From the NCBI GenBank assembly GCA_048939465.1, contig JBHLPL010000001.1:30001-62000 (forward strand): a stretch of 32,000 nt of DNA, in the 5' to 3' direction. The position numbers and the translations under genes were made by a program. The first letter of the stretch is position 1; every line of letters begins with the position of its first letter. The notes under the pieces were generated by a model. That model had not been told where the DNA came from and did not search any database. It saw only the letters and a program-made list of their open reading frames with translations. Source of the stretch: Promethearchaeota archaeon (GTDB taxonomy: Archaea; Asgardarchaeota; Odinarchaeia; Odinarchaeales; JBHLKK01). Positions 25,898 through 31,955 of this stretch are shown here, piece by piece.

Positions 25898-26266
25898 TCA
25901 AATGATCTTATTAATCTCTCTTGCGGCCCTGTCAGCTGCAATATATGCTGTTTGTGGAGAGCCTTGGCTTGTAATATAGCACATAAATAGTGCTTTTTGT
26001 CCTACGGCCGCAACAACTAAGTGCCCCATACCTTTCATGTTGGTTGCAATGAACCTATCTTGAGTAGCATTGATTGTTGAATACTTTATGCCCTGAACTA
26101 CAACACTGGGCGTTTTGTTTGTAAAAGCTGAAACAATATCGGGTCCTTGAACTGTCCAGTTTTGTGTTTGGTGGATTATTCCCCCATTCATGCCAACTAA
26201 TGCTGTGGCTGTTATGTTTGGATCAGACTGCATCAGGTTACTAGATATAGACGCAACATCTGCCAT
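25898..26266 (-). CDS. Profilin (Asgard type), 122 aa
   Basis: TALVGMNGGIIHQTQNW, VVVQGIKYSTINAT..RFIATNMKGMGHLVVA and C-terminal helix AYIAADRAAREI match profilin topology. GGAGGT-ATAATA-ATG fixes the start at 26266. Confidence 0.8.
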   Translation of the reverse strand: MADVASISSNLMQSDPNITATALVGMNGGIIHQTQNWTVQGPDIVSAFTNKTPSVVVQGIKYSTINATQDRFIATNMKGMGHLVVAAVGQKALFMCYITSQGSPQTAYIAADRAAREINKII

Positions 26267-26485
26267 TATTATACCTCCGAGACCTTTCAGCTGTTTCGTT
26301 CTCAATTGAATATAATCTCTCTTTAGTCATTTAAGTTTTTGGCAAGTTGCAAAGGGGTAAAATATTGTTTGGCCAACAGTCCTTCTGAGAAGTTCAATCT
26401 GCCGAATAACTTACAAAATGGAAAGACATGTTCCGTGAGACTTATAAGAAACCAGGAAACAGATTGCTCAACGAGGGCAGCTATC

Positions 26486-26806
26486 TTGCAGGAAAGTCAG
26501 GAGATTGAAAAACGAGAAGAAGAGAAAACAAGTCCAATATCGGTACTTTCTTTTATTCTCTTCTGCGCCGTTGTAGTCTATCTGCTTCAAGCTCAGTATA
26601 TTGGATTATTCCCTTTCCGACCATTAGATTTTCCTGACCGAGGCACCATGTTGATCTCCCCATCTGGTCTCTATCTGATATATTGGGTCGGCATGATGGG
26701 ATTGCTTTTGGGGCTTTATAGGGAAACAAAGGATAAACTGCTTCTCGGAGTGGTATTCTTCTTTGCGTCTCTGATATTCCTTTTCATCCTAATCTCCACA
26801 TTATGA
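26486..26806 (+). CDS. Small 3-TM membrane protein with charged N-terminus, 106 aa
   Basis: TATA CTTATAAG (26441-26448), SD GAGGG, then TTG 26486. ESQEIEKREEEK followed by three hydrophobic segments, the last at the C-terminus. Confidence 0.7.
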   Translation: MQESQEIEKREEEKTSPISVLSFILFCAVVVYLLQAQYIGLFPFRPLDFPDRGTMLISPSGLYLIYWVGMMGLLLGLYRETKDKLLLGVVFFFASLIFLFILISTL

Positions 26807-26877
26807 CAGCTGAAGCTGATAATAACGCAACCTTAAAACGTTAGGCCTTATTAGTAAAAAGACGGGATGGATAAAAC

Positions 26878-29639: not shown

Positions 29640-30425
29640 ATGAAGTGTCCCCGATGCGATTATGAGATTTCAGCAGATCAATTAACATGCCCGCAATGTG
29701 GTTTTAGAATGACGATTGAAAAACTTGAACGCGTAATTCCCTTGCTTAGACGCCCCGTTAGAACAACTGTAGAACCGTTATCTACCCTGCAGAGACTGAA
29801 AGGGACGTTCATTTCTCCAGCTTTGACCTTCTGGAACATTTCCAAAATCCCTGACAAAAAGGGATTCTTGTTCATTTTATTCTTCAATGCACTCCTTATT
29901 TCTCTCAATTACCCCATCTTATGGACGCACATAAATGTAATAGGATCTGAAACCTTCGTCGGAATTGTAAGTCTCCACATATGGGGGAGCTTTATTGGCT
30001 TGTTTCTATCTGGCCTTGGCATATTATTGCTCGCGTGGATTCTGATCGTTTTTGCATTCTGGACAATCTCCAGAGTGACTGGAGGAAAAGGATCATATCG
30101 AGCAACCTTTCTGGTCACAAGCTATGCCTTTGCCCCTCTTATAATCGCAAGGTTAATTTCTCTGGTTGTCTTGGCAGGTGGACTCCCAAGCGTTACCATT
30201 ACCGAAGCCATGGCTCCTGGAGAATTGGGCACAGCACTGATACCTTTACTCAATTCTGTAGTCTGGACTTATTCCCTTGGTGTTGAGACTTTCTTTTGGC
30301 TTTGGTCTGCACTGCTTTCTTCATTGGCAATAAGAGAAACTCAGAATACGTCAACTCTCAAAGCGGTAGTAATGGCTTACGCTGTTATCATATGCTCTCT
30401 ACTAATACTTTGGACAATTCATTGA
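29640..30425 (+). CDS. Zinc-ribbon + Yip1-domain membrane protein
   Basis: CPRC-x11-CPQC, then LKGTFISPALTFWNI (Yip1-type amphipathic start), about 5 TM segments, SYAFAPLII, W...L..LAIRE..N.S..KA. Confidence 0.75.
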   Translation: MKCPRCDYEISADQLTCPQCGFRMTIEKLERVIPLLRRPVRTTVEPLSTLQRLKGTFISPALTFWNISKIPDKKGFLFILFFNALLISLNYPILWTHINVIGSETFVGIVSLHIWGSFIGLFLSGLGILLLAWILIVFAFWTISRVTGGKGSYRATFLVTSYAFAPLIIARLISLVVLAGGLPSVTITEAMAPGELGTALIPLLNSVVWTYSLGVETFFWLWSALLSSLAIRETQNTSTLKAVVMAYAVIICSLLILWTIH

Positions 30426-30492
30426 AGATAGGTCTGGGAACTGGCTTGGTCCATATTTGAAAGTCCTGTAATCTCTGAAGGGCTCAAGTAGG

Positions 30493-31488
30493 TCATCGGA
30501 TCATCACTATGAGTTTGATGGGACTGGCCAGATTCTTATCATTAACAAAAATGAGATCTCCTTCTTTCACTCCGGTATCTTTCAATACGATGCTATCCGG
30601 GACAATCTTGCCCTCGATAATAATCTCAGGATTCTGAAGGCCATAGGTCATTATCAGCCTGTTTTTTAATTCTTGAATGGGTTCTTCCAGGTTCACGACA
30701 TATTTGACGCCTACGGTGCGGTACTTAGGACTGCAAACAACACAGCTCGGATTACGGACAAGCCTAATCTTTGTAAAAGACTGGCTCAATCCATCGTAAA
30801 ATAGATAGTTGTCAAGCAGATCCTTGCGTTCTAAAATAATCTTTAGCGTTTCTTGTGCTTGGATTCCTCCGACTACTGTAGTTGTTGTGGAAATCATTGG
30901 AAATTTCTCCTTCTCTTGCTCTTTCTCTTTTCGCGCCTCTCCAGGAAGAGTACAGGCCTTCTGTAATCTTTCTTTTGGTATCAATGGTTGGCATTCCAGG
31001 CAGGGCGTTTCAAAGGGGATGATTACCTGAACGTTCCCCCACCAGCCAAATAATCCTCCATGAATTAGAGGCTTATTCAAGTGAACACACATGGAATTCA
31101 GCCATCTGCGTGCCTCAAAAGTATCTAAGCCTTCCACGATGACCGAACTTCTCTGGTAGACTTCTTTATCTATCGACCGCATATCCTTCATATAGGTACT
31201 TACCTTGACTTCCGGATTGAGTTTCTCAAGGAATTCCTCAGCAGCCTCCACTTTCAATCTTCCAATATCTTCTTCTCTGAAAAGTATTTGTCGGTTCAAA
31301 TTCGAAAGCTCAATTGTGTCGTTGTCTATAAGAATCAACTTTCCTATTCCCATCAACGCCAGATCAAGAGCAACTACCGAGCCTAAAGCCCCCACTCCTA
31401 CGACCAAAACCGTTGAATTGCGAATCAATCCTTGGTCCCATTCTTCGAGAAGTTCCTGTCTATGATAACGACCTTCTCCTTCTTTCAA
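30493..31488 (-). CDS. Ubiquitin-activating enzyme E1-like (adenylation domain, catalytic Cys, C-terminal ubiquitin-fold domain)
   Basis: RYHRQ, GVGALG, DTIELSNLNRQILF, LDTFEAR, Zn pair CLEC/CVVC, ACT catalytic Cys motif, UFD-like tail. The TTG start overlaps the E2 stop (TTGA). Confidence 0.92.
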   Translation of the reverse strand: MKEGEGRYHRQELLEEWDQGLIRNSTVLVVGVGALGSVVALDLALMGIGKLILIDNDTIELSNLNRQILFREEDIGRLKVEAAEEFLEKLNPEVKVSTYMKDMRSIDKEVYQRSSVIVEGLDTFEARRWLNSMCVHLNKPLIHGGLFGWWGNVQVIIPFETPCLECQPLIPKERLQKACTLPGEARKEKEQEKEKFPMISTTTTVVGGIQAQETLKIILERKDLLDNYLFYDGLSQSFTKIRLVRNPSCVVCSPKYRTVGVKYVVNLEEPIQELKNRLIMTYGLQNPEIIIEGKIVPDSIVLKDTGVKEGDLIFVNDKNLASPIKLIVMIR

Positions 31489-31955
31489 GCCTGCCCCCTC
31501 CTGAGGTGTTTCCAAGTAGCATACCTTTTGATATACTCTTTTACTTTCTCCTTGAATTCTCTTGGCGACTCACGCATTTCCTTTGCAGCCACTCGATTCA
31601 GAGGGTCGTGAGGGTTGGGAAAGCTCAGGACGTTTCTTATGGCCTCGATTACGCCAACTAAATTTATGCTTGGAGACCAATCTTTCCCCAGAATGCCCAG
31701 ACATATTCTTCCCTCCCTGGTGATATTTGGATGCCAAATTGGAGTCAAGAACCGAGCTTTGGGAGGTTTAAATGGATAGCTTCTGTCTACTTCTAACTCG
31801 ATTTGGAAGACCCCTCCATCGTAAACACTGGTACCTAGAATGAATCCACGCCATTTTGTGAGGTCTCCACTTAGCGGTTGAAATGAAGGTTCCTCCTCCT
31901 CTATGCTCTTAGCTTCAAGTGCCAAGCGCTCTAAGAATGCCTCTCTGTCTAAAAT
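31485..31955 (-). CDS. Ubiquitin-conjugating enzyme E2
   Basis: YDGGVF, YPFKPPK..F.TPIWHPNI..EGRICLGIL..DWSP, PNPHDPLN. Helix 1 (FLERLALEA) extends upstream of the track's TTG 31925; putative ATT start at 31955. Confidence 0.95.
   Translation of the reverse strand: MLDREAFLERLALEAKSIEEEEPSFQPLSGDLTKWRGFILGTSVYDGGVFQIELEVDRSYPFKPPKARFLTPIWHPNITREGRICLGILGKDWSPSINLVGVIEAIRNVLSFPNPHDPLNRVAAKEMRESPREFKEKVKEYIKRYATWKHLRRGQA

Follow-up and report, generated by a model that had tools for sequence, protein, structure and literature searches.

A ubiquitin-ESCRT gene cluster has already been published for Odinarchaeota, in Candidatus Odinarchaeum yellowstonii LCB_4 and in other Asgard archaea (Hatano et al. 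2022, PMC9192718, which cites Zaremba-Niedzwiedzka 2017 as a further source for the cluster). An Asgard ubiquitin-ESCRT supercluster is also described in a 2023 preprint, which places a Yip1-domain membrane protein and a small GTPase among the ubiquitin genes of Hodarchaeia (10.1101/2023.07.25.550441). In addition, archaeal Get3 homologues of the GET/TRC pathway have been solved (3zq6 and 3ug6; PMC6593721), and for Yip1 a presence in all three domains has been described (PMC13734099). Here we analyze 32,000 nucleotides of DNA (the window) from an Odinarchaeales genome labelled Promethearchaeota archaeon (contig JBHLPL010000001.1, positions 30,001 to 62,000), in which eight consecutive genes at 25898-31955 encode a profilin, a protein with three transmembrane segments (3-TM), a Get3 ATPase, a UPF0047 protein, a lysine deacetylase (HDAC), a Zn-ribbon-Yip1 membrane protein, and E1 and E2 enzymes of ubiquitin conjugation. 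A first-pass annotation of the window had suggested that this block might be an ancestral membrane-protein targeting and quality-control module. Our comparison across Asgard genomes indicates that the block is probably a composite neighbourhood of several units and not one functional module; only two pairings within it, 3-TM with Get3 and Yip1 with E1, recur in distant Asgard archaea.

The window (G000:C138:30001-62000 in our numbering) lies within a 1.96-Mb metagenome-assembled genome (MAG) of 152 contigs with 3.8% contamination. Genes were assigned with Pfam and solved relatives by sequence matches to the Protein Data Bank (PDB); gene identities, motifs and synteny are reported as observed, and all biochemical roles and both membrane partnerships proposed below are predictions from them. 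A search of the phylum found E2 in 288 of 400 genomes, and synteny was anchored on this gene by using 60 loci of 20 kb with E2 at their centre plus 76 named loci, together representing more than 20 families, onto which 20 proteins of contig C138 were mapped. The Get3 and Yip1 families were counted in 189 Asgard genomes with a completeness of at least 90%, and the 3-TM family was sought in the 400 phylum genomes plus 20 fetched loci. Since related genomes are not independent samples, the counting unit is the family rather than the genome; families are coded f1 (that of the window), f2 (its sister family, of Odinarchaeota-labelled genomes), f5 and f6 (Baldrarchaeia), f8 (Heimdallarchaeaceae), f11 (Hodarchaeales), f14 (Hermodarchaeia), f15 (Jordarchaeia), f16 (Freyarchaeia), f17 and f19 (Helarchaeales) and f28 (Borrarchaeia), and the names of f4 and several Heimdall-type families are provisional.

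Among the E2-anchored loci, the full gene order from profilin to ESCRT-II was found only in the window genome and two genomes of the same genus (G298 and G299), the order being the same in these two at 59-93% protein identity. A reduced order, profilin-Get3-UPF0047-EamA transporter-Yip1-E1-E2-ubiquitin-RING, is present in f2 in four Odinarchaeota or Odinarchaeia genomes, which belong to the same taxonomic order as the window genome and one of which is a single closed contig; there the EamA transporter stands in the place of HDAC, and both HDAC and the 3-TM gene are missing. In one of these Odin loci (G300, L007:5804-8873), Get3, UPF0047, EamA and Yip1 are co-directional with gaps of 67, 33 and 24 nucleotides (nt), and E1 is convergent and abuts them with no spacer. 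Because of this shared direction and the gaps of 24-67 nt, a block of the G300 type may be a single operon in which Get3 and Yip1 are co-transcribed. Beyond Odinarchaeales, 13 of the 17 families examined show no linkage of Get3 or profilin to E1/E2, profilin was never found near E2 even when iterated profile searches were included, and profilin adjoins Get3 only in f1 and f2.

The order of the whole cluster is thus not kept beyond close relatives, one genus having it in full and one sister family in reduced form. Because it is limited to this genus or order and Get3 lies elsewhere in other families, an ancestral module for quality control that combines Get3 with ubiquitin is unsupported. What holds of the earlier interpretation is that pairs of genes within the block recur, that ubiquitin and ESCRT genes follow past base 32000 and that Yip1 is a recurrent neighbour; the eight-gene module is not supported. 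In a MAG of 152 contigs with some contamination, unrelated genes could also have been brought together by chimeric assembly of the contig or on an island gained by horizontal transfer. We rejected this explanation as exceedingly improbable, since the order is shared by the two congeneric genomes and, in reduced form, by the four Odin genomes with their closed contig, GC content is flat across the window (0.42-0.46) and the Get3 tree follows lineage.

The Yip1 gene (29640-30425, plus strand) encodes about five hydrophobic segments that match Pfam Yip1 (PF04893, 57 bits against a cut-off of 28.6) and an N-terminal Zn_Ribbon_1 domain, and it is convergent on E1 across a 67-nt spacer. This Zn-ribbon-Yip1 family is single-copy and occurs in 179 of 189 Asgard genomes. 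Its gene adjoins E1 or E2 in eight families (f1, f2, f5, f6, f9, f10 [two of the five genomes sampled], f11 and f14), which belong to the Odin, Baldr, Hermod, Hod and other Heimdall groups. Three arrangements are found, as Yip1 is convergent on E1 in most cases, whereas in f9 it follows E2 in the same direction and in one f10 genome it follows E1 in the same direction, and in Hodarchaeales it stays beside E1 though E2 has moved 6-7 kb away. The gene-neighbourhood conservation that had been sought for the whole cluster therefore exists for Yip1, which recurs beside ubiquitin genes in distantly related classes of Asgard archaea; in the literature searched, this pairing was previously reported for Hodarchaeia only. 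To our knowledge, neither a membrane substrate nor an anchor has been described for the Asgard ubiquitin-ESCRT pathway, and a Yip1 protein whose gene tracks E1/E2 through several rearrangements is a concrete candidate for such a component. As a separate matter, an NZF-type ubiquitin-binding finger was considered for the Zn-ribbon and rejected as unsupported, since its CxxC-x10-CxxC spacing is compatible with such a finger, whereas the T-F and Asn residues typical of these fingers are not conserved among the orthologues.

The second recurrent pairing joins Get3 to an orphan membrane protein. The 3-TM gene lies on the plus strand in an open reading frame at 26339-26806 and has no Pfam family; because same-genus orthologues start with an ATG at the corresponding point, we revise the gene to 26486-26806, or ~106 amino acids. 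In the alignment the family has an acidic N-tail, a G-x-[YF]-P-F motif that ends the first transmembrane helix (TM1) and a basic loop between TM2 and TM3, and this layout suggests a cytosolic tail followed by three transmembrane helices. Searches among 5.8e9 proteins placed the family in 36 clusters, all of them annotated as 'hypothetical' and all the named ones from Asgard archaea. Pfam matches to Get1/Get2-like or other families at E<=10 were only noise, an AlphaFold2 model (pLDDT 66) had no Foldseek match in the PDB at E<=0.001, and the ESM atlas contained no match at >=0.9. The family is found in 35 of the 400 phylum genomes, namely in f1, Hermodarchaeia (18/19), Jordarchaeia (4/5), Freyarchaeia (5/6) and Helarchaeales-type families f17-f19, and its gene directly adjoins Get3 in 32 of these 35 genomes, which represent six families. 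In 19 of the 20 newly fetched genomes it is upstream of and co-directional with Get3, at a distance of ~60-290 nt; in Freyarchaeia it is inverted and convergent with Get3 and is still adjacent. We know of no membrane docking partner for archaeal Get3, and the 3-TM protein is a concrete candidate for its membrane receptor.

The Get3 gene itself (26878-27837, plus strand; 292 bits in Pfam) encodes an ATPase in which the P-loop (a deviant Walker A, GKGGVGKT), switch II (DTAP) and the CxxC zinc motif of the dimer (here CWFC) are intact. Its PDB matches are 5zme, archaeal 3zq6 and 3ug6, and eukaryotic Get3 at ~e-60, and those to bacterial ArsA reach only e-36 and are partial, so that by sequence the protein resembles Get3 of archaea and eukaryotes more than ArsA of bacteria. 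Orthologues are present in 177 of the 189 Asgard genomes. The Get3s associated with 3-TM genes fall in related clades of the lineage-following tree, and both features are as expected from vertical descent with losses. The gene for UPF0047 (YjbQ-like; 27863-28273, plus strand; 126 bits in Pfam), the eighth member of the block and the one left unnamed in the first-pass annotation, starts 25 nt behind Get3 after a spacer that contains a GGGGAT motif, and a search for a microprotein gene at the end of Get3 found no plus-strand open reading frame of 20 amino acids or more. It is probably co-transcribed with Get3, and the same-strand adjacency of Get3 followed by UPF0047 is found in four families (f1, f2, f18 and f19). 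In G117 (f16), a second system at L061:5515-11483 contains ubiquitin, E2, a 383-amino-acid E1, JAB/MPN, RING and Vps4-like AAA genes. Get3 and its 3-TM partner lie 3-3.5 kb upstream of this paralogous Ub-E2-E1 system, with the same spacing in G117, G120 and G122.

The deacetylase gene (28277-29512, minus strand; 301 bits to Pfam Hist_deacetyl) encodes a predicted HDAC-fold, Zn-dependent enzyme with a complete catalytic set (HH154, D192/H194, D281 and GGGY322), and its best PDB matches are the catalytic domains of HDAC6 (E 1e-61), with HDAC2/class I and bacterial HDLP nearly as good. HDAC occupies the exact position seen in the window only in this genus. In f4 and in Baldrarchaeum (f5), clear orthologues (45-47% identity) are encoded beside a MinD-like ATPase at a distance of 3.5-5 kb from E1/E2, and Baldrarchaeum has the order HDAC-MinD-Yip1, which converges on E1. 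The gene directly behind E1 in Borr- and Sifarchaeia is that of the MinD-like ATPase, and an HDAC is 3 kb from E2; the orthology of this HDAC is ambiguous, since it scores 211 bits to the window HDAC versus 197 bits to a paralogue. HDAC is therefore near E1/E2 in three families (f1, f4 and f5), or in five if those of uncertain orthology are included, and the orthologues in Odin- and Hermodarchaeia are far from E1/E2 (in Odin, ~745 kb from E2). As a neighbour of ubiquitin genes in distant classes, HDAC is thus supported, but more weakly than Yip1.

Two further observations concern these genes. HDAC residues 67-80 (29258-29335, minus strand) contain an in-frame tandem duplication of seven amino acids (FLYEPRI twice), which all three genomes of the genus share and which the orthologues in f4 and f5 lack. 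The MinD/ParA-like (CbiA) ATPases, of ~270 amino acids and mutually 47-81% identical, are encoded at L011:12904-13710, L013:6721-7557, L054:11438-12256 and L117:5157-5945. The gene is one or two genes from E1 in Baldrarchaeum and f4, HDAC lies within 5 kb in f4, Baldrarchaeum, Borr- and Sifarchaeia, and the orthologue of the window genome is on contig C37.

Several of the findings weigh against a composite neighbourhood. The Get3-UPF0047-EamA-Yip1 block of the Odin genomes is tight and abuts E1. Get3 lies less than 8 kb from an E2 in three independent lineages, and in these three only (f1/f2, three f16 genomes and one f33 genome), where ~0.3 would be expected by chance on a rough estimate. The Yip1 protein occurs in 40 of 40 f31 genomes that have no E2 of this type, so it cannot depend on ubiquitin. 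Finally, in f4, f5, Borr- and Sifarchaeia the surroundings of E1 repeatedly include an HDAC and a distinct MinD-like SIMIBI ATPase, and some link of these enzyme classes to the ubiquitin genes is conceivable.

The first two of these points, together with the retention of the linkage across two families of the order, would also be predicted if failed Get3 clients were passed to the adjacent E1, E2 and RING proteins and removed, as in the ancestral targeting and quality-control module proposed earlier. For example, the Odin block resembles an operon that ends against E1, Get3 lies 3.5 kb from the second Ub-E2-E1-JAB-RING system in three Freyarchaeia genomes, and it is 7 kb from E2 in G398. In the 13 unlinked families, however, Get3 is on a separate contig or is far from E2, at 80 kb (main E2, G117), 165-247 kb (G002, G004 and G115) or 1.4 Mb (G016). 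We treat the three proximities as weak evidence because their arrangements differ, with unrelated genes in between, and because eight genes were tested post hoc; hand-over of Get3 clients to ubiquitylation is suggested only by these lineage-specific cases (Odinarchaeales, Freyarchaeia with a paralogous ubiquitin, and one f33 genome). In addition, transcription of the Get3 and ubiquitin genes is separate and convergent in the window, such a pathway has no role for profilin or HDAC, and no homologues of Bag6, Sgt2 or Get4/5 and no RNF126-type hand-over or pretargeting factors were seen among the annotated neighbours of the locus. Such an ancestral module for targeting and quality control would place the origin of a eukaryotic proteostasis circuit in Asgard archaea; this is not supported by the synteny, and we regard the proposal as improbable.

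It could instead be argued that synteny here is purely neutral, so that the Yip1-E1 and 3-TM-Get3 pairings are leftovers of an older gene order that have no functional meaning and persist only since the intergenic targets are tiny. Yip1 is mostly convergent with E1 and so not co-transcribed with it, it persists in the f31 genomes noted above and is unlinked in Heimdallarchaeaceae, f13, and Jord-, Frey- and Loki-like genomes, and most Asgard genomes with Get3 lack the 3-TM family. Yet all the other neighbours are shuffled between classes while Yip1 follows E1/E2 through three rearrangements, and the 3-TM gene keeps its place upstream of Get3 in nearly all of the fetched genomes and its adjacency even where inverted. 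We therefore consider wholly neutral linkage of both pairs unlikely, albeit less so than the quality-control module.

The composite neighbourhood, which we regard as the probable reading, is made up as follows. E1 and E2 are the promoter-distal genes of a RING-Ub-E2-E1 operon that opens the ubiquitin-ESCRT supercluster. By homology, E1 would adenylate ubiquitin and pass it to Cys75 of E2, a RING E3 would tag substrates, and UEV-Vps23/Vps28, ESCRT-II, ESCRT-III and Vps4 would handle these at the membrane. Zn-ribbon-Yip1 is an ancient positional partner of the ubiquitin genes, and may act as a membrane anchor, adaptor or cargo. The 3-TM, Get3 and UPF0047 genes form a separate unit with a predicted role in targeting of tail-anchored proteins, in which the 3-TM protein is the putative membrane-side docking partner of Get3. 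Profilin is an independent gene for a predicted actin regulator, and HDAC a predicted active deacetylase that is placed here only in this genus. In the last shared ancestor of Odinarchaeales, the Get3 unit and profilin came to adjoin the ubiquitin cluster, probably as a juxtaposition without functional coupling. A more specific proposal, which we advance only tentatively and think somewhat unlikely as a whole, is that the 3-TM protein is a Get3 docking partner analogous to Get2/CAML, that Yip1 serves in the ubiquitin-ESCRT pathway at the membrane, as anchor, adaptor or cargo, and that these two systems were joined in Odinarchaeales, possibly on one Get3-UPF0047-EamA-Yip1 transcript. The locus also carries a caution, in that a run of 'eukaryote-like' family names beside an ESCRT cluster can reflect lineage-specific juxtaposition.

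The gene content of the block agrees with the first-pass annotation, including its eight consecutive genes and their assignments, with the 3-TM protein outside any Pfam family. At least four transcription units had been proposed; strand changes and intergenic spacers agree with this and indicate at least five. The Odin-type profilin gene (25898-26305, minus strand; PF00235, 29 bits against a cut-off of 25) has 5zza_P as its best PDB match (E 6e-30, residues 27-135), with other Asgard profilins at e-12, and its start is probably the ATG at 26266, which gives a protein of ~122 amino acids. The E1-like ubiquitin-activating enzyme has a ThiF/MoeB fold (30493-31515, minus strand; 228 bits in Pfam) and retains a GVGALG nucleotide loop and two CxxC motifs. 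Its gene overlaps that of E2 by 31 nt. The E2 gene (31485-31925, probably 31485-31955, minus strand; 130 bits to Pfam UQ_con) encodes HPN65 and Cys75, both also invariant in the E2 alignment. Its first canonical start is a TTG at 31925, and the most likely start is an ATT codon at 31955, which is the end coordinate given in the earlier annotation. This ATT aligns with the ATG of orthologues, the position is ATT or ATA in all three members of the genus (ATA in one), ten in-frame codons upstream of the TTG (31926-31955) are conserved, and a GGAGG motif lies 9 nt before the ATT.

The description of these genes as eukaryote-like is correct as far as family names go, but the Get3, HDAC, Yip1 and ThiF-type E1 families are widespread in prokaryotes, and in a stricter sense the term eukaryote-signature protein fits only profilin and E2. 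The density of eukaryote-like genes at this point is explained by the adjoining ubiquitin-ESCRT supercluster. To the right of E2, past base 32000, lie genes for ubiquitin (L002 1102-1344), RING (L002 1360-1599), a RING-GTPase fusion and a coiled-coil protein, which was assigned by its position as the asCOG005522 gene of the 2023 preprint; the ubiquitin C-terminus reads ...EGGDP and so contains the GG. Further right are a 351-amino-acid protein, a HerA-like ATPase, Snf7, Vps4 and a Vps25-like ESCRT-II subunit, and then a 1318-amino-acid protein, EAP30 (Vps22/36), Vps28 and UEV-Vps23, so that ESCRT-I, -II and -III and Vps4 are all within 17 kb. As ubiquitin and ESCRT genes directly follow E2, E1 and E2 are the left edge of the known supercluster (C138 60.5-77 kb), and the E1-E2-Ub-RING order is kept in more than 12 families. 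Inspection beyond base 32000, as the annotation had suggested, thus found the ubiquitin, RING E3, ESCRT-I/II/III and Vps4 genes; the JAMM gene that was also sought was not found on contig C138, and the sole JAB match (PF01398) is on contig C7.

Other genes of the region include an 868-amino-acid HerA/DUF87 ATPase behind Snf7 (L002:4237-6843, minus strand), which has counterparts with 34-43% identity beside Snf7/Vps4 in Helarchaeales-type loci L049, L051 and L052, and a VTT-domain (DedA/Tvp38-type) membrane protein encoded just beyond UEV-Vps23, where the ubiquitin-ESCRT region ends on the side away from E1 (L002:18368-18907, minus strand). To the left of profilin are housekeeping genes that encode a HAD protein, an M24-fold protein, a class II aminoacyl-tRNA synthetase, DNA ligase and CPSase; the creatinase/prolidase-fold M24 gene beside the block is at 23950-25116 (plus strand).

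When compared with known systems, the locus shares some features and lacks others. Like the eukaryotic GET/TRC pathway (Get3/TRC40 with Get1-Get2 or WRB-CAML), it encodes a Get3-type ATPase with P-loop, switch II and CxxC motifs. Get2/CAML have a layout of a tail plus three transmembrane segments, and the 3-TM protein is likewise a small membrane protein with three such segments and a predicted cytosolic N-tail, encoded here beside Get3. No sequence or fold similarity of the 3-TM protein to Get1/2 or WRB/CAML was detected, and its acidic tail contrasts with the basic Get3-binding motif of Get2. The deacetylase matches the catalytic domain of HDAC6, and its gene is near ubiquitin-system genes in f1, f4 and f5. 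HDAC6 binds ubiquitin via a ZnF-UBP domain; the window protein, in contrast, has a single catalytic domain and no ZnF-UBP, and linkage to ubiquitin genes is not kept in Odin- and Hermodarchaeia.

The ubiquitin genes themselves compare closely with those already described. As in the published Asgard cluster (PMC9192718), E1-E2-Ub-RING genes are followed at one locus by an asCOG005522-like gene, UEV-Vps23, Vps28, ESCRT-II, ESCRT-III and Vps4, and the order and spacing of E1-E2-Ub-RING are those of Odin-labelled genomes. The family of the window genome differs in the insertion of the RING-GTPase fusion, the HerA-like ATPase and the 1318-amino-acid protein, and in the position of UEV-Vps23, 15 kb from E2. 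The synteny plots of that study end 2 kb from the ubiquitin and ESCRT genes, and its text makes no mention of Yip1, profilin or a deacetylase (PMC9192718). Finally, the Zn-ribbon-Yip1 protein that adjoins E1 here is of the same family as that of Hodarchaeia (10.1101/2023.07.25.550441); unlike in that report, the GTPase at this locus is fused to RING, and the pairing of Yip1 with ubiquitin genes extends to Odin-, Baldr- and Hermodarchaeia and to other Heimdall families.

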